This document shows positions 33,688 through 61,517 of a DNA stretch of 64,000 bases, piece after piece. Both the position numbers and the translations under genes were made by a program. The notes beneath the pieces are model-generated. The model ran no database searches. It was not told where the DNA came from and saw nothing but the letters and a program-made list of their open reading frames with translations. The DNA is taken from the NCBI GenBank assembly GCA_963838415.1, contig CAWIRB010000007.1, forward strand, positions 16,621 to 80,620. Direction: 5' to 3'. Position 1 is the stretch's first letter. Each line of letters begins with the position of its first letter. This DNA is from an uncultured Acidobacteriaceae bacterium. GTDB taxonomy: Bacteria > Acidobacteriota > Terriglobia > Terriglobales > Acidobacteriaceae.

Positions 33688-33730
33688 GGTGCCCCAGGTT
33701 CGCGCCCGCCCTTTGGGCGCTAACCTGGGA
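33688..33730 (+). repeat. REP-like hairpin element, isolated copy
   Basis: GGTGCCCCAGGTTCGCGCCCGCCCTTTGGGCGCTAACCTGGGA. Nested stems are CCCAGGTT/AACCTGGG and GCGCCC/GGGCGC. Confidence 0.85.
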
Positions 33731-54481: not shown

Positions 54482-55387
54482 ATGACGCTGGCCCTTGCAC
54501 TCTCCATCTTCGTTTTTCTCACCATCGTGGTGATCGTCTTCGCCTTCGGAGCCGCCACCTTCGCGCCCTCCTCCGTCCTCGGATCCCGCCTGCGCGAAAT
54601 CGGCTGGCAGCGCCCCAAGTCCGAGGCCAAACCCGCCATCCGCGAACGCATGCAGCAGGCGCTCGATCCCCTCAGCCGCGCCTTGCCCCTTTCCTCCGCC
54701 AACGTCTCCCAGACCCGTCTCTGGCTCATTCAGGCCGGCTATCGCAGCCCGCAACACGTCACCATCTATCGCGGTTTGCGCGTCCTCTTCGCCGCCCTCG
54801 GCTTCGTCTCCGTCTTTGCCTTCACCGGATTCAGTTCTCCCCTGCTCCTCCTGGGCGTAACCGCCTTCGGCTTTTTCATTCCCCGCTTCCTGCTAAAAAA
54901 GAAGCTGCAGGAAAGGCAGCGCCGCATTCGCCTCGGCCTTCCCGATGGCCTCGATTTAACCGTGATCTGCGTCGAAGCCGGCCTGTCTCTCGATCAGGCC
55001 ATGATGCGCGTCGGCGAAGACCTGCAAACCGCCCATCCCGAACTGAGCGCTGAATTCCATCTCTTCGACCTCGAAACTCGCGCCGGAAAGCCCCGCGTCG
55101 AGGCTCTCCGCAACCTCGCCGAACGCACCGGCGTCGACGACATTCGCTCCCTCGTCGGAACCCTCATTCAAACCGACCGCTTCGGAACCAGCGTCGCCCA
55201 GGCCCTCCGCGTCCATTCCGACTCGCTGCGCACCGAACGCCGCCAGCGCGCCGAAGAACAGGCCGCCAAGACCACCGTTAAAATGATCATCCCCCTCGTC
55301 CTGTTCGTCATGCCCTCCCTCATTTTCGTCACCGTCGGCCCCGCCGTAATTCAGTTGCTCCATATATTCATGCCGGCCAAACGCTGA
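54482..55387 (+). CDS. tadC: TadC (T2SS-F family) inner-membrane platform protein
   Basis: T2SSF-type domain. Paralogue of tadB. Confidence 0.85.
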   Translation: MTLALALSIFVFLTIVVIVFAFGAATFAPSSVLGSRLREIGWQRPKSEAKPAIRERMQQALDPLSRALPLSSANVSQTRLWLIQAGYRSPQHVTIYRGLRVLFAALGFVSVFAFTGFSSPLLLLGVTAFGFFIPRFLLKKKLQERQRRIRLGLPDGLDLTVICVEAGLSLDQAMMRVGEDLQTAHPELSAEFHLFDLETRAGKPRVEALRNLAERTGVDDIRSLVGTLIQTDRFGTSVAQALRVHSDSLRTERRQRAEEQAAKTTVKMIIPLVLFVMPSLIFVTVGPAVIQLLHIFMPAKR

Positions 55388-55429
55388 GCAGATCTGTTAT
55401 GGGTGATTTGTAATTTGTAATTCTATTTA

Positions 55430-55448
55430 AGAGCGGCACCGCCGCTCT
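55430..55448 (+). terminator. hairpin AGAGCGGC-ACC-GCCGCTCT downstream of tadC
   Basis: 8-bp GC-rich stem with only a short T tract after it. It is embedded between inverted heptamer arrays. Confidence 0.45.
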
Positions 55449-55502
55449 CCCGGCTTTCAAATTGCAAATCACAAATCGCCAATTACAAATTGAGGCTCGT
55501 CC

Positions 55503-55904
55503 ATGCCACCGCGCCAGCCCAAGGGATACGCTTTCAACCGTACTCGCACCACCTATCTCGCGACCAATCTCATCGTCGCCCGTACCCACTGGTCCCGTTT
55601 CCGCGGCCTCATGGCCACCGATGCCTCCCAGTTCTCCCCCGGCCAGGGCCTCTGGATCAGCCCTTCCCGGGGAATCCACACCTTCGCCATGCGTTTTCCC
55701 ATCGACGCCGTTTACCTTGACCGCGAACGTATCGTGATTCATATTGAAGAGGACCTCAAACCCTGGCGTCTGGCCGCCATTCGCGTCCACGCCGCTTCCG
55801 TGCTTGAGATTCCAGCCGGCACCGTCCGTGAATCCCTGACCGCTCTCGGCGACCAGGTCGACATCTCTTTCGAAGAACGCCCAATCCACACCGAAGCCGC
55901 CTGA
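55503..55904 (+). CDS. DUF192-like protein
   Basis: ..RGLM.......G(L/M)...P..GIHTF.MRFPID.V(Y/F)LD.. pattern. Confidence 0.6.
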   Translation: MPPRQPKGYAFNRTRTTYLATNLIVARTHWSRFRGLMATDASQFSPGQGLWISPSRGIHTFAMRFPIDAVYLDRERIVIHIEEDLKPWRLAAIRVHAASVLEIPAGTVRESLTALGDQVDISFEERPIHTEAA

Positions 55905-55964
55905 AGCAAGTGAAGAAGTGACAAGAGATTGAAAGGCCGCAAAAGTGGAAGGCGAAACGTTGAA

Positions 55965-56010
55965 GGTGCCCCAGGTTCGCGCCCGTCCTTTGGGCGCTAA
56001 CCTGGGAGCC
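55965..56010 (+). repeat. REP-like hairpin element
   Basis: GGTGCCCCAGGTTCGCGCCCGTCCTTTGGGCGCTAACCTGGGAGCC. Confidence 0.9.
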
Positions 56011-56040
56011 GGAGCCAAGGCGCGCTCACCGTGGACGAAG

Positions 56041-56718
56041 TTACTTGGGCCGCAAAAACACCCTCTCACCTCCGCCGTACGCCTTTCGTTCCCGATCTCC
56101 AGCTGTCCACTCCGATTCGATCTCCACCGCCCCAATCTCGCGCAGCGCATAATGCCGGAAGCTGCTCCACTTCCACTCCTCAGGCCTTAGAACCAGCCCC
56201 CGCTTCACCGGATTGCGGTGAACGTATCGCAGCTTAACCGTAAACTCCTCGTAGTCGCGTACATTTCGATCATAGTAGCGTTTCTCCCAAAAGGATCCCG
56301 ATGTTGGGTGCCCCAGGTTCGCGCCCGTCCTTTGGGCGCTAACCTGGGAGCCCGAGGATCGAAAGCGTCGAACCCGTTTAGCGAAAGACAATTTCAGATA
56401 GTGCATTGCCTCGGCCAACGTAGCCGAGTCGGAAAGGTGCCCCAGGTTCGCGCCCGTCCTCTGCGCGCTAACCTGGGAGCCCCGGGAGGAGCAATCGCGG
56501 GCGAAGGCGGCAGGCTCACTCAACAGCAGATGAACATGCTCCGGCATGACAACGTACCCATAAACGCTGACATCGAAACGGAGGCGCATATCCTCCAGGC
56601 ATCGAACGAACAGATCGAACACCTCGACGGTTGCGAAATAGGGACAACGGCGGTAACAACTAAAAGTTACAAAATGGCATTGCCCGGATTCGTGAAAGCG
56701 CCGGAGACCGCTGGGCAT
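56041..56718 (-). CDS. REP-associated tyrosine transposase (RAYT; IS200/IS605 Y1 HUH family) with two REP-encoded in-frame inserts
   Basis: HUH motif VMPEHVHLLL, FWEKRYYDRNVRD, and catalytic-Tyr motif RYVHRNPVKRGL. The peptide GSQVSAQRTGANLGH occurs twice and is encoded by REP copies. Confidence 0.8.
   Translation of the reverse strand: MPSGLRRFHESGQCHFVTFSCYRRCPYFATVEVFDLFVRCLEDMRLRFDVSVYGYVVMPEHVHLLLSEPAAFARDCSSRGSQVSAQRTGANLGHLSDSATLAEAMHYLKLSFAKRVRRFRSSGSQVSAQRTGANLGHPTSGSFWEKRYYDRNVRDYEEFTVKLRYVHRNPVKRGLVLRPEEWKWSSFRHYALREIGAVEIESEWTAGDRERKAYGGGERVFLRPK
56307..56351 (+). repeat. REP-like hairpin element inside the RAYT CDS
   Basis: Identical core to the flanking copies. Confidence 0.9.
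56436..56481 (+). repeat. REP-like hairpin element inside the RAYT CDS (inner stem altered)
   Basis: Core reads ..GTCCTCTGCGCGCT.. instead of ..GTCCTTTGGGCGCT.. . Confidence 0.9.
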
Positions 56719-56803
56719 GAGCCAAACTTACGCTGCGCAGTAACTCTGGGAAAGTACACGATCGTGGGTATGACTGAACCGGCGGGTGGGCACGACGCAC
56801 GGT

Positions 56804-56869
56804 GCACGGTGCCCCAGGTTCGCGCCCGTCCTTTGGGCGCTAACCTGGGCGCTGTCGGGCACACTACCT
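56804..56869 (+). repeat. 66-bp REP-containing direct repeat, left copy
   Basis: GCACGGTGCCCCAGG...CTGGGCGCTGTCGGGCACACTACCT is identical to 58473-58538 and 58655-58720. Confidence 0.9.
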
Positions 56870-56932
56870 GCGTGTGAGCAAGACATCGACTATTATCCTT
56901 ACGGCGGCGTTGAGTAGGACTACTGTCCGGTC

Positions 56933-57781
56933 GTGTCTCAAAACTACAGATTCACCGGCAAAGAGCACGACGCGGAGAGCGGACTGGAGAATTTCGAAGC
57001 CCGCTATGATGCCTCGAGCATCGGCAGGTTCATGACGCCGGACGATGGGTCGCATCAAACGGTGGGCGATCCGCAGAGCTGGAATCTCTACGCCTACGTG
57101 CGCAACCAACCGCTCCGCTATGTAGACCCCACCGGACACGGGCCTCAAGGGGCCACAGCGGCGGCATCAAGTTGCGCCCAGGATCAGGGCGGAGGAGGAC
57201 ATACTACATGTAATGTCGACACCTCGGGCACAACAACGGCGCAAAATACGTTCCCGTTCCATGTGCCGTACGGGCAGCAAGGATTGTATGGGGCACCTTG
57301 TCCAGTTGACGCGTGCGTGACGGCCACGGCCCCTAAGTCGATCTGGGGGAAAATCGGCAGTTGGTTCGGTGGTGTGGCATTCGGAATCGTGCGATGGGGC
57401 AAGCTCGGTGGCCCTTTGCACAGGGCGGGTGTTGAAAGAGTTTCCAGATCCTTGGAGGAGAGCGGCTTCAAGGTCCAAAGGGAGGTAAGAGTTCCGACCC
57501 CCAATGGCGCCAAGTCCTCGCGCTGGGTAGATGTCGTTGGAACGAAGAACGGCGAGACGAGAATGTATCAGATCGGAAGGCAAAATATGGATGGAACTCC
57601 GGTCGCTCGCGAAGTTCAAGCTCTCGATGACATTGAAGGGGCTACAGGCATCCGGCCTAATTTTCTTCCGTACAATATCGGAGAGCCGAATTTTGGTGTG
57701 CCTGGAGCTACCGACATCGCGCCGGGTGTCACGCCGGGAGAAGGTGAAGTCCCGGTCGAGCCAGAAATCATTCCCGAGTAG
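56933..57781 (+). CDS. orphan Rhs/YD-repeat C-terminal tip with variable toxin domain (N-terminally truncated)
   Basis: YRFTGKEHDAESGL..F.ARYD...GRFMTPD...NLYAYVRNQPLRYVDPTG core-end motif. Homology extends upstream in frame (DYYPYGGVE*) across a TAG at 56914-56916. Confidence 0.75.
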   Translation: MSQNYRFTGKEHDAESGLENFEARYDASSIGRFMTPDDGSHQTVGDPQSWNLYAYVRNQPLRYVDPTGHGPQGATAAASSCAQDQGGGGHTTCNVDTSGTTTAQNTFPFHVPYGQQGLYGAPCPVDACVTATAPKSIWGKIGSWFGGVAFGIVRWGKLGGPLHRAGVERVSRSLEESGFKVQREVRVPTPNGAKSSRWVDVVGTKNGETRMYQIGRQNMDGTPVAREVQALDDIEGATGIRPNFLPYNIGEPNFGVPGATDIAPGVTPGEGEVPVEPEIIPE

Positions 57782-57788
57782 GAACCCT

Positions 57789-58352
57789 ATGAGCAAGCAA
57801 TTCTATGTGTATTTGCTGCCTGCGGATGTGGAGGCTCTGGTTTACACACTGAAGTCGCGGCTGGACGTTTCGCTCATTCAACCGTCATCGTCAGGACCGT
57901 TTCCGGTAAAGCTGGAATCACCAGTTTGCAACGATGCGCTGATGCTGAAGGAGGCGGCAGTCCGAGTTGATTGCTTTATCACTCGCAAAGACGCAGACAT
58001 CAAGATGCGGTTTGTTCCAGCCCTTTCTCGCTGGAGTGTTCAAGGCGAGTCTGAGGTGATCGAGTTCCAAGGCTGTGAGTTCGACGGCAGTGTGCTTCTG
58101 CGTGGACGTTTCTATTTTCAAAATGACTTCCTCATGGAAGACATGATCGCTCCTAAACGGACGGAGTTCCTCGCCTGGGCAGACAAGGTGTTTCGGCTGG
58201 CCAAGAAGTCACTGTGCAGATCAGAAACTCTCGATGCGTATGTGGGTGAACATGCCGAGAAGTGGAAACAAGAGGGCGGACGGTTTGCTTGGATGGTCAC
58301 TCCAGAGCGCGGCCCGATTTTCGAGGGTGAAGCCGGATCTCTTGCCAGATAG
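57789..58352 (+). CDS. putative cognate immunity protein
   Basis: Starts 8 nt after the toxin stop, is 187 aa, and has lower GC than its surroundings. No recognised family. Confidence 0.5.
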   Translation: MSKQFYVYLLPADVEALVYTLKSRLDVSLIQPSSSGPFPVKLESPVCNDALMLKEAAVRVDCFITRKDADIKMRFVPALSRWSVQGESEVIEFQGCEFDGSVLLRGRFYFQNDFLMEDMIAPKRTEFLAWADKVFRLAKKSLCRSETLDAYVGEHAEKWKQEGGRFAWMVTPERGPIFEGEAGSLAR

Positions 58353-58474
58353 AAAACAACGGGTGATCTGACCAGCAAGCGGAATACCTACCGTTGGCGT
58401 TCTAAGGCGGCCAGGGCTTGCGATCCGGCGCGCGTGGAGAGGCGGGTGGGCCCCATCTCCTTCACTCATGTAGC

Positions 58475-58838
58475 ACGGTGCCCCAGGTTCGCGCCCGTCC
58501 TTTGGGCGCTAACCTGGGCGCTGTCGGGCACACTACCTTTCGCACCTTTCGAAGGGCGCCGGATAAGTCCCGCGGTTTTCGAGACCACCGCAAACCGCCC
58601 TTGACTCGCCTGCTAGAGTAGATTCATAGCAAACAAGCACTTGCCCCAGCACTCGCACGGTGCCCCAGGTTCGCGCCCGTCCTTTGGGCGCTAACCTGGG
58701 CGCTGTCGGGCACACTACCTTTCGCACCTTTCGAAGGGCGCCGGATAAGTCCCGCGGTTTTCGAGACCACCGCAAACCGCCCTTGACTCGCCTGCTAGAG
58801 TAGATTCATAGCAAACAAGCACTTGCCCCAGCACTCGC
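58475..58838 (+). repeat. perfect 2 x 182-bp tandem duplication, each unit beginning with a REP hairpin
   Basis: Units 58475-58656 and 58657-58838 read identically. Confidence 0.95.
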
Positions 58839-59357
58839 TGCTCCTTGACAACAAGACCGAGCTGTAGTCGGCCGTTGTTTCAGTGGCCCACCTCTGCAAC
58901 CCGTTTATCGGGCGTCGTGCGAATAACTCTATTTCTTTCAATACTTTGATAGCGAACAGGCTACGCAAGCAAAAAGACCCAGCTAAGTGATTGATTTCCC
59001 GTGGCGGGCACCGGTCAATACGCACCAAGTTTACCCGGAGCCAGCGTTAACTCTCTATTCCTCAATACTTTGTATATAAGTCGTGATTATTCAATACTTT
59101 GGAGGGAGTTTCTCTCTAACTTCATGATTCCAATATACCCGTAGACGGGGGAGGGGGTACCCCCTGCGAAACACCTCGCCTCGACGTTCGAAACATCGAC
59201 AAACTTCCGAAGCGACCCAGAAACTCCGTCCCCGTTGTCCGTGAGAAGTCCGAGAGAAAAAAGACACAAAAACACTGAAGTTACCGCGATAATCAGAGCA
59301 TCCTTCTGGCACACTATACTGGTACGACTCCCCCCAGAAAATAGCGCAGTCAAAATA

Positions 59358-61517
59358 ATGTCCGAAGTCGTCGCCATTCCCGATGTCGCCACGCAATGGC
59401 CTGAGCCCCCGCGTCTGCTGGTGGAATGGTCGTCGCCCTGGGAAGAATTCAAATCCGCCCTGCGCCCCGCGCTCCGCCGTCCGCCGAAAGCCCTTGCCGG
59501 AGAAGCGCCCATCGGCATCTTCCCTTACCGCGGCATGCTCCTCTGCTGGCTGCTCGAGTGCCTGCTGCTGATTGCGATCATCGTAATCCCCGAGCATTTT
59601 ATAAGTCTTGAGATCCCGCTTGGTCCCAATCATCCCCAAGAGGACGTCATCTACTACTCCGGCGACGAACTGCCGCAGACCCAGGACCGCGGCGGCGCCG
59701 AGTCGGGCAAGTCCGGACGCGCCGGAGGCCAGCAAGCTCACCATCGCTCCCAGGTCATTCGCGTAGCCCGCGGCGATAGGCCCGCCGAAAAGGTTGTGGA
59801 CGCGCCCAAGGTGAATCTGCCTCATTCCGATTCCGCCGTCGCCAACCTGCTCGCCTTCAAAGCGAATCCTGGACCGCCGCCTGCCGAAGGCTTACGCTCT
59901 GCTCTCATCGCGCCATTACTCCCCGCGATGAGCGCGGTGCCCCCAGCGCCGGATGTGGATTCGTCCTCCAGCCGTGCCTCAAGCAGCCTCTCCACCAACA
60001 TCGTCCCTCCCGCTCCCGATGTTTCGAACGCCAACACGCGCAATTCGCCCAACCTGAACGCCGCGGTTGTCCCGCCCGCTCCCAATCTCGCGCAAGACAA
60101 GATGCGAACCGCCAATCCCATCGCACCCACCATCATCGCTCCCGCTCCTCGCGATGCGCAGCGCGACCTCGCCAGTTCCCGCGTCCCCTTGAGTCAAACC
60201 GTCGACGTGGTTGCCCCGCCCGTTTCCGCTCCGCCGCGCGACATGTCGTCCACGCCCAAGCTGAGGTTGCCTGCTCCCGCCGTAGTAGCGCCTCCACCCT
60301 CGCAGGTCAGCCGCGATCTCAATAGCTGGGGAGGCTCCGCCACTGGCGATTTGCGCACCAGGCCCGTGCCTCCTCCGCCCAGCGCCTCCGCCGGAGGATC
60401 GCTCTCTCGATCTGGCGGCACTGGCCTCGCCCAGCAAGTCGTACCCCCTCCCGCCAGCATCGACGGCCACGGTTCTCAGACCGGAAACAGTGCTTCAGGA
60501 AATAGCGCTCACCCCGGTCAATCCGCAGCTTCGCTCCTCGGTTCCGCCGATGTGGTGCCGCCTCCACCCGGTCTCGGTGGCGGCAAAGCCCTCTCTGGCA
60601 ACGGACGCGGCAACAAGGGAACTGGTTCTGGCAGCCCACTCGATCTCGGTACATCGGTAGCTCCCCCGAGTAACGCCGGAGGCAACGCTGCTGGCTCCGG
60701 TGTCGTCCTGTCCAGCCAGCCCGGAACCCAGGCCGGACTGCCCAACTCCACCGGCGGTGGCGCCCTCGCCATGTCGCCCAACGGCACCGGCAAGAGTGGC
60801 CTCGGCGGCAGCGGCGGCGGATCCGGCATCGGCAATGGCAATGGCCCCGGTAGCGGATTGCAAGGAGAAGGTAGTGGCGCAGGCCGGGCAGGCTCAGGCC
60901 GCGGCTCCGATCCCAACGCGCGCGGCGGAATTTCGCAGTATCCCGGCTCGGGCGGTGCCGGCAACGGCACCAGCGGCACGCCCGCCCTCCCCGGCGTCTC
61001 CGTCGAAGGCGGCACCACCACCGTCACCCTGCCCAGTTTCGGCGCCCCCGGCGGCGACGCCCCTTCGTCGGGCCCCGGCCACTCCTCCACCAACGCTCAC
61101 AAAGGATCCGGAATTACCATCGAAGCCACTCCGCGCTCGGGTGGCGTCTTCGCCTACTACGACGTTCTGAAAGGCGACCGCAATTATTCGATTTACATTG
61201 AAACCACTCTGGGCACGGCCGTGATGCAGTACGCCGACCCTTCATCGGCATCCCATCCCTCCCGCGAAATTCTCAACGCGCCCGAACCCATGCGCAAAGA
61301 TCTACCCGGCAACCTTCGCCCGACGCGCGTGGTCATTGCCTGTGTCCTCGATCGTTCCGGTGACCTCAAGGATCTGAAAGTCCTCGAACCCGGCGCCGCC
61401 GAAACCACTTCCAGGATCCTGGTCGCTCTACACAGTTGGAAATTCCGTCCCGCATTCCGGGGAACGGAACCGGTCGAAGTGAACGCTATCTTGGGTTTTG
61501 GTGTGGATACACGGTAG
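59358..61517 (+). CDS. TonB-family protein with a very long Pro/Gly/Ser-rich linker
   Basis: Single N-terminal TM (LLCWLLECLLLIAIIVI), ~500 aa of low complexity, and a C-terminal TonB-like fold (..VLD..G.....V.......T....V.AL..WKFRPA...G.PV..). Confidence 0.6.
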   Translation: MSEVVAIPDVATQWPEPPRLLVEWSSPWEEFKSALRPALRRPPKALAGEAPIGIFPYRGMLLCWLLECLLLIAIIVIPEHFISLEIPLGPNHPQEDVIYYSGDELPQTQDRGGAESGKSGRAGGQQAHHRSQVIRVARGDRPAEKVVDAPKVNLPHSDSAVANLLAFKANPGPPPAEGLRSALIAPLLPAMSAVPPAPDVDSSSSRASSSLSTNIVPPAPDVSNANTRNSPNLNAAVVPPAPNLAQDKMRTANPIAPTIIAPAPRDAQRDLASSRVPLSQTVDVVAPPVSAPPRDMSSTPKLRLPAPAVVAPPPSQVSRDLNSWGGSATGDLRTRPVPPPPSASAGGSLSRSGGTGLAQQVVPPPASIDGHGSQTGNSASGNSAHPGQSAASLLGSADVVPPPPGLGGGKALSGNGRGNKGTGSGSPLDLGTSVAPPSNAGGNAAGSGVVLSSQPGTQAGLPNSTGGGALAMSPNGTGKSGLGGSGGGSGIGNGNGPGSGLQGEGSGAGRAGSGRGSDPNARGGISQYPGSGGAGNGTSGTPALPGVSVEGGTTTVTLPSFGAPGGDAPSSGPGHSSTNAHKGSGITIEATPRSGGVFAYYDVLKGDRNYSIYIETTLGTAVMQYADPSSASHPSREILNAPEPMRKDLPGNLRPTRVVIACVLDRSGDLKDLKVLEPGAAETTSRILVALHSWKFRPAFRGTEPVEVNAILGFGVDTR

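Follow-up and report, generated by a model that had tools for sequence, protein, structure and literature searches.

A Terriglobales RAYT transposase gene with two in-frame copies of its cognate REP hairpin

The RAYT (TnpA_REP) gene in a 64-kb stretch of DNA from an uncultured soil Acidobacteriaceae bacterium (contig CAWIRB010000007.1; the whole 64,000-nucleotide stretch is referred to below as the window) contains two in-frame copies of the REP hairpin that also flanks it, both located between the HUH and Tyr motifs of the predicted enzyme. The explanation preferred here, to which a probability of roughly three in four may be attached as a whole, is that the gene has been hit twice by its own REP in loops that tolerate inserts, that the enzyme acts locally, and that the copies inside the gene are homogenized with those around it. 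In-frame insertion of a REP into a RAYT gene is already published (Quentin, Siguier, Chandler & Fichant 2018, BMC Genomics 19:475, PMC6006769), and the window is a new example, which widens its known range by a further RAYT lineage and by the loop between helix alphaC and strand beta4.

The RAYT gene and its flanking REPs

The ORF at 56041..56718 on the minus strand, an intact frame of 225 aa with an ATG start in the ORF list, is a RAYT/TnpA_REP gene by its motifs and database matches, and its product is predicted to be a Y1 HUH single-strand DNA endonuclease. The Y1 HUH core is present as EHVH in VMPEHVHLLL, the W in FWEKRYYD and the Tyr in RYVHRNP (Y-x-x-x-NP), with the HVH codons read from the sequence at 56530-56538 and the codon of the catalytic Tyr (Y165) at 56224-56226. 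A preliminary description made from the sequence had named the gene on these motifs, and the assignment is borne out by matches to Pfam Y1_Tnp (PF01797; 1.1e-6, 29 bits against a cutoff of 23), to the NCBIfam equivalog model NF047646 REP_Tyr_transpos (1.2e-30, 106 bits against a cutoff of 80) and to E. coli TnpA_REP (4ER8; 3.9e-9), the only close solved structure. Foldseek returned exclusively Y1 transposases at E<0.01, although these matches are weak (TM ~0.3-0.5), and the top ones are Y1 transposases of the IS200/IS605 group (IS608, ISDra2), structural relatives of the RAYT. The match to 4ER8 is in two pieces and the NCBIfam match in two stretches, the latter being the pattern expected of a domain that is interrupted by something. 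There is one RAYT copy in the window. One cognate REP follows its stop codon by 34 nt and another precedes its start codon by 94 nt, the arrangement that makes a REPtron, and the same REP-flanked layout is found at orthologous loci.

REPs are by definition short, imperfect hairpins of GC-rich sequence that have a conserved tetranucleotide foot (GT[AG]G) on the 5' side and are dispersed in high copy number in intergenic space. The conserved unit of the window consists of a GGTGC foot and a 37-nt bulged hairpin, which amounts to 42 nt, or 45 nt with AGC; as DNA it folds with -18 to -20 kcal/mol and a z-score of -4.5 to -5.8. The foot is GGTG(C), not GTAG, and matches the acidobacterial REP foot in Table S1 of PMC6006769. 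The 37-mer CCCAGGTTCGCGCCCGTCCTTTGGGCGCTAACCTGGG occurs seven times in the 64 kb, always on the plus strand, where shuffled sequences predict no occurrence at all. Six of the seven copies are within 2.8 kb of the RAYT gene, and the only copy far from it (33688..33729, 37-mer at 33693, one mismatch) is intergenic between divergent ORFs. The flanking copy that follows the RAYT stop codon (55965..56009, 37-mer at 55970) has the orientation of the copies inside the gene, and the one that precedes the start codon occupies 56808..56869 (37-mer at 56813). Two further copies (58477..58538, 37-mer at 58482, and 58659..58720, 37-mer at 58664) are 1.8-1.9 kb upstream of the start codon, in the first and second units of a perfect 182-nt tandem duplication (58473-58654 and 58655-58836) with one REP per unit. 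The copies at 56813, 58482 and 58664 have in common a longer unit, GCAC-REP-CGCTGTCGGGCACACTACCT.

The remaining two copies are inside the gene, as direct repeats 129 nt (43 codons) apart on the plus strand. Copy 1 (56437..56481, 37-mer at 56441) is at site 1, the beta3-alphaC loop, and has two substitutions relative to the extragenic consensus; copy 2 (56308..56352, 37-mer at 56312) is at site 2, the alphaC-beta4 loop, and is identical to that consensus. On the minus strand both are read in the same frame as the peptide GSQVSAQRTGANLGH, which makes up residues 80-94 (copy 1) and 123-137 (copy 2). The segment between them (56353..56436, minus strand) encodes a linker LSDS, helix alphaC (ATLAEAMHYLKLSFAKRVRRFR) and a linker SS, and is kept in homologues generally. 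The two substitutions, GCC to GCG and CAA to CAG on the coding strand, are both synonymous. In all of this the preliminary description was accurate. It had also stated that both substitutions weaken the inner stem of the hairpin, and this holds for one of them, which breaks a stem pair, but not for the other, which sits in the loop; the fold of the REP strand as DNA goes from -20.0 to -16.1 kcal/mol, whereas that of the coding or mRNA-sense strand is unaffected (-19.2 versus -19.1 kcal/mol). The junction tryptic peptides predicted for the inserts are TGANLGHLSDSATLAEAMHYLK and TGANLGHPTSGSFWEK.

The length of the REP unit, 42-45 nt, is a multiple of three, and the unit is free of stop codons in four of the six frames, so that an ORF would survive two random insertions about 44% of the time. 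The open frame of the insert-bearing gene is by itself weak evidence of function. A role of the hairpin as an intrinsic terminator is rejected, as it is followed by a T-run on neither strand. A scan of 55000-59500 against Rfam (E<=1) produced a single chance match to a miRNA, and the REP corresponds to no curated RNA family.

Recurrent insertion at two loops

Loci with related RAYT genes were sampled from species-representative genomes (80 loci, all from Terriglobia/Acidobacteriota MAGs) and from metagenomes (80 loci), and the length of the HUH-to-W segment was measured in the 151 related Terriglobia genes with both motifs. The segment is 29-38 aa long in 111 of these genes, which contain no insert, and at least 44 aa long in the other 40, most of which carry REP-derived DNA. 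Insert-free homologues, which are 180-183 aa in length, are thus the majority, and they are spread over the family. When insertions were mapped by motif-anchored segments, the homologue alignment placed REP-derived peptides at exactly two positions, one just past the HUH strand (site 1) and one between the helix ..LAEAIHYLKLSFAKR.. and GSFW(E/Q)KRYYD (site 2). By homology to 4ER8, and in the nomenclature of Quentin et al., site 1 is the beta3-alphaC loop and site 2 the alphaC-beta4 loop, with helix alphaC between them.

Among the 80 genome loci, the extra DNA of nearly every expanded gene matches repeats located ~30-400 nt from the same gene, and the inserts belong to at least five unrelated REP families, represented by the peptides QVSAQRTGANLGH, CAPGSPLFWANLG, APLKPKDGLNGPP, GAPFKPTLSVAERVGLSGGE and GGPPYREAKGG. 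Distinct and unrelated peptides that occupy the same loops include QVSAQRTGANLGH, VPQVRVRSLDANLGP, GAPGSPLFWANLGS, APLKPKDGLNGPP and GGPPYREAKGG. At each of the two sites the REP family of the window occurs in either orientation (QVS[AV]Q..[GD]ANLGH versus VPQVRVR..DANLGP), and it forms tandem arrays of up to six copies in homologues; copy number, orientation and site differ among close relatives. Given an insert-free majority, matches to local extragenic repeats, and at least five families and both orientations of insertion, the loop segments are recurrent insertions of the cognate REP and not native sequence that gave rise to REPs. In-frame self-insertion of REPs is common in Terriglobia by this measure, with loop expansions in 40 of 151 genes, and it recurs at the same two loops.

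The orthologues L001 (90% identity) and L002 (76% identity) have both inserts at the same positions as the window gene. Comparison of the core of the gene with these orthologues gives dN/dS values of 0.23 (L001) and 0.11 (L002, dS ~1.07), and all invariant positions of the family, the catalytic ones included, are retained in the window. Judged by these ratios, the RAYT gene is under purifying selection while carrying its inserts. From conservation only, the enzyme of the window may be inferred to be catalytically competent and to be translated through the inserts.

These results bear on the possibility, which the preliminary description had itself raised, that the segments are native protein sequence from which the REPs were derived or that the gene is a dead pseudogene with an open frame by chance, to which an assembly artefact may be added. 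The chance of an open frame calculated above is high enough to permit such a reading, and the window comes from a metagenome-type assembly. Against these readings stand the prevalence and the wide distribution of insert-free genes, at least five unrelated REP families that are each matched to local extragenic copies, purifying selection on the core in lineages that all bear both inserts, and the retention of every invariant catalytic position. They are further contradicted by the occurrence of an identical protein (P0001, annotated as 'transposase [Terriglobales bacterium]' in a Terriglobales MAG) on six contigs from NCBI, JGI and ENA, and by insert-bearing orthologues in many independent MAGs and metagenomes. 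This group of explanations is largely refuted and may be regarded as extremely improbable.

Alignment of filled and empty sites revealed no convincing target sequence or target duplication at the insertion points; the side of the insert with the GGTGC foot is always conserved and the opposite side is variable. Of the two open frames available per orientation, a single one is used at sites 1 and 2 (20 of 20 and 6 of 6). This bias could come from common descent of the insertions, from an insertion point that is precise, or from selection against the basic or hydrophobic peptides encoded by the alternative frames; a pure model of random insertion plus tolerance fails to predict it unless one of these factors is included.

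Several other arrangements of REPs and RAYT sequences were observed in the survey. Distant Terriglobia RAYT genes (L018-L023, L038, L063, L065) contain other, unrelated repeat families (APLKPKDGLNGPP, GAPFKPTLSVAERVGLSGGE, GGPPYREAKGG) in the same two loops, and further copies of each family are found a short way outside the gene. At many homologous loci, among them L093, L099, L109, L112, L137 and L142 (gene ends near 2537-2546), the RAYT gene runs into the downstream REP, unlike in the window, and REP sequence provides its C-terminal ..PG together with its stop codon (CCA GGT TAG). Flanking REPs are read into a C-terminal extension at L014 and L136 (e.g., ..FAQVSAQNRGANLGH) and into an N-terminal extension at L118 and L120 (e.g., CPRFAS.F.TLTW); REP-derived peptides are thus found at RAYT termini too, in annotated or extended ORFs. 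Second copies, partial or full, of the RAYT inter-motif region with 92-100% identity are located 0.1-3.6 kb away at L004, L015, L017, L022, L027, L043 and L076, which indicates local duplication of RAYT genes or fragments in some genomes. The usual layout of a REPtron includes an inverted copy of the REP upstream. Such a copy is found ~75 nt upstream of the gene in L001 (9889) and L002 (9880), whereas the upstream copy of the window (56813) is direct, which suggests that a rearrangement may have occurred upstream of the window RAYT gene.

Evolution of the inserts as DNA hairpins

The window and L002 differ at 21.5% of nucleotides in the core of the gene and at 45% in the loop linkers, but at only 4.8% in the REP codons (P = 2e-5 versus the core rate). 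Copies of one 37-mer REP family with up to nine mismatches were compared, 33 of them inside RAYT genes and 128 extragenic. All 14 stem pairs are intact in 28 of the 33 in-gene copies, and the inner stem is found in the compensated variants GCGCCC/GGGCGC, GCGTCC/GGACGC and GCGCGC/GCGCGC. The compensatory change of GCC/GGC to GTC/GAC turns the encoded A..G into V..D, and the combinations observed are A-G (43 occurrences), V-D (40 occurrences) and never V-G. Such strict covariation implies that the amino acids follow the pairing of the stem. As far as these comparisons go, it is the amino acids that change to keep the hairpin and not the reverse, and the inserts evolve as DNA hairpins.

The preliminary description saw in the synonymous nature of both differences between the window copies what translation under protein-level constraint would lead one to expect, though anecdotally with two substitutions, and the corresponding explanation is that the REP peptides have been exapted and contribute to RAYT function, for example to DNA binding near the region that recognizes the REP. 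The use of a single reading frame per orientation at sites 1 and 2 agrees with exaptation, as does the location of site 2 in the alphaC-beta4 region, which is near the REP-recognition surface according to Quentin et al. (PMC6006769). Peptides that are unrelated in sequence nevertheless occupy the same loops, the amino acid changes track stem complementarity, the dN/dS of the insert region (0.38-0.52) is above that of the core (0.11-0.23), the inserts are predicted to be disordered, and most homologues have none. Protein-level constraint on the inserts is therefore unsupported by the dN/dS values and runs counter to the compensatory substitutions, and exaptation is judged very unlikely.

The in-gene copy of a locus is usually nearest in sequence to an extragenic copy of the same locus. 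Variants in the unpaired loop of the hairpin are common to the in-gene copy and its extragenic neighbor, and differ between orthologous positions across genomes. These patterns point to exchange among copies, through gene conversion or through replacement mediated by the RAYT. With their conserved hairpins and the variants that they have in common with neighboring copies, the in-gene REPs appear to behave as live members of the REP population. The conservation of the hairpin fits gene conversion, repeated insertion of a REP and selection that acts directly on the hairpin equally well.

Direct selection would make the in-gene hairpins cis-elements instead of tolerated passengers. The RAYT might bind or cleave hairpins in its own gene or mRNA for autoregulation, or the in-gene REP might be a protected 'seed' or master copy by which the REP and the enzyme are locked into co-inheritance and co-evolution. 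A cis-element would account for hairpins that are kept by amino acid-changing substitutions and whose sequence changes 4-5 times more slowly than the coding DNA around it: the divergence of the in-gene REPs is far below that of synonymous sites of the same gene (4.8% versus 21.5% of nucleotides), pairing is preserved by compensatory changes at an amino acid cost, and about a quarter of the related genes (40 of 151) are expanded in these loops. The inner stem is also intact in L003, where there is no extragenic copy within 10 kb. On the other hand, 111 of the 151 related genes do without any insert, and close relatives differ in how many copies they have, in which orientation and at which site; homogenization with extragenic neighbors explains the conservation without a function, and the common loop variants point in that direction. 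Neither a T-run nor another regulatory signature accompanies the hairpins, and Rfam finds nothing in 55000-59500. Selected cis-elements are therefore considered rather unlikely.

Structure of the insert-bearing protein

Whether the inserts fall in surface loops, a question posed by the preliminary description, received part of an answer from AlphaFold. The models are poor, with a mean pLDDT of 52 (36 sequences) or 61 (104 sequences) and a C-terminal half that is not resolved, and they served only to show low-confidence inserts and a confident alphaC. Both models have helix alphaC (residues 101-123) as a confident helix, flanked by REP-encoded residues in low-confidence coil; in the model from 104 sequences the pLDDT is ~90 in the helix and below 50 at residues 81-95 (copy 1) and 125-153 (the region of copy 2). 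The inserts are thus modeled as extensions of surface loops, mainly on the basis of homology to 4ER8 and the low confidence of the models at the inserts.

A protein of 177 aa (P0064) differs from its relative P0027 in that helix alphaC has been lost in frame, with one hybrid REP peptide left in its place. It is apparently the product of recombination between two direct in-gene REPs. To judge from this sequence, two direct copies in the gene are a liability, as recombination between them deletes alphaC in frame.

REP density and a model of local action

Across 65 loci that contain the REP family of the window, and that were chosen for containing a RAYT gene, the density of REPs (one 37-mer family with at most nine mismatches) is 0.86 per kb inside the gene; outside it, the density falls from 3.5 per kb in the nearest 200 nt to 0.16 and then 0.12 per kb up to a distance of 3 kb, and to 0.023 per kb between 3 and 10 kb. 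The steepness of this gradient and the behavior of the in-gene copies together suggest, indirectly, that RAYTs work on the DNA in the neighborhood of their own genes.

The model that is preferred for these data is a Terriglobales REPtron in which the RAYT gene has been hit twice by its cognate REP, in the two length-variable loops between HUH and Tyr, and the in-gene REPs would be translated as disordered loop extensions of 15 residues. The density gradient suggests that the enzyme works mainly in cis and locally, and local action would make its own gene a frequent target. Insertions in the loops would leave the protein intact because the REP unit is a multiple of three and stop-free in most frames; selection would spare only those insertions that are in frame, free of stop codons and situated in the two permissive loops, and would purge insertions elsewhere in the gene. 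The in-gene REPs would remain in the REP population of the genome, homogenized with their neighbors by gene conversion or RAYT-mediated replacement, and would evolve unlike ordinary coding sequence. The same enzyme occurs as insert-bearing, insert-free and alphaC-deleted alleles, which provide a natural test bed. The practical importance of the phenomenon is modest.

Comparison with known systems

Recognition of hairpin ends on single-stranded DNA by IS200/IS605 transposases is the mechanistic template for mobilization of REPs. IS608 and ISDra2 are autonomous insertion sequences with left-end and right-end hairpins and defined tetra- or pentanucleotide targets, whereas no IS-like mobility is seen for the RAYT gene of the window, where it is present in one copy. 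The TnpA_REP and REPtron of E. coli were reportedly described by Ton-Hoang in 2012 and by Messing in 2012. The fold, the motifs (HUH, W, and Tyr followed by NP) and the flanking REPs are common to the E. coli and window RAYTs, but the window gene contains two REPs and the E. coli gene none. The REPs of E. coli have a GTAG foot and are highly abundant throughout the genome, unlike those of the window, which have a GGTG(C) foot and are sparse away from the gene.

The preliminary description knew of no RAYT with its own REP in the catalytic domain, but this novelty is lost to Quentin et al. (PMC6006769), who describe in-frame insertion of a REP in tnpA_REP between HUH and Tyr. The insertion is called unique there to TnpA_Y1 subclass 2.4 (Cyanobacteria, Bacteroidetes and others), which has the signature NH[IFV]H / WQ / YIxNNP and a variable insertion between beta3 and alphaC. 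An in-frame REP between HUH and Tyr is common to subclass 2.4 and the window gene. The signature differs, being EHVH / WE (WQ in relatives) / Y[VL]HRNP in the window gene, which moreover has inserts in both loops and not in the beta3-alphaC loop only. In Table S1 of the same paper, acidobacterial REPtrons with the GGTGC-CCCA foot, the foot of the window REP, are assigned to subclass 2.2 (divergent arcs) or to subclass 2.1, and not one of them to 2.4. By these motif signatures and Table S1 only, the acidobacterial clade does not fit subclass 2.4, and in-frame self-insertion of REPs into RAYT genes would not be confined to the subclass in which it was first reported. The passages of PMC6006769 that were consulted mention neither conservation of in-gene REPs at the DNA level nor compensatory changes or exchange among copies, and a search of the literature on in-gene REPs in RAYTs, which covered later papers on RAYTs and REPINs, yielded nothing beyond Quentin et al. 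2018.

Di Nocera et al. (2013, PMC3733652) describe REPs that lie in frame within ordinary genes, and cite Ogata et al. (2000) for the palindromic elements of Rickettsia (RPE), which are likewise inserted in frame in coding genes. These too are short palindromes in genes that seem to be functional, occurring singly, doubly or in clusters and adding 20-80 residues. Their hosts are unrelated genes, such as those of DNA repair and tRNA synthetases, whereas the gene that is hit in the window encodes the presumed mobilizing enzyme, and in its clade the same two loops are hit recurrently.

Immediately after the upstream REP of the window, the ORF at 56933-57781 on the plus strand contains a C-terminal motif of the RHS core (..NLYAYVRNQPLRYVDPTGH..) and, after it, a tail of the variable kind. 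By its sequence it looks like an orphan RHS toxin tip beside the REPtron.
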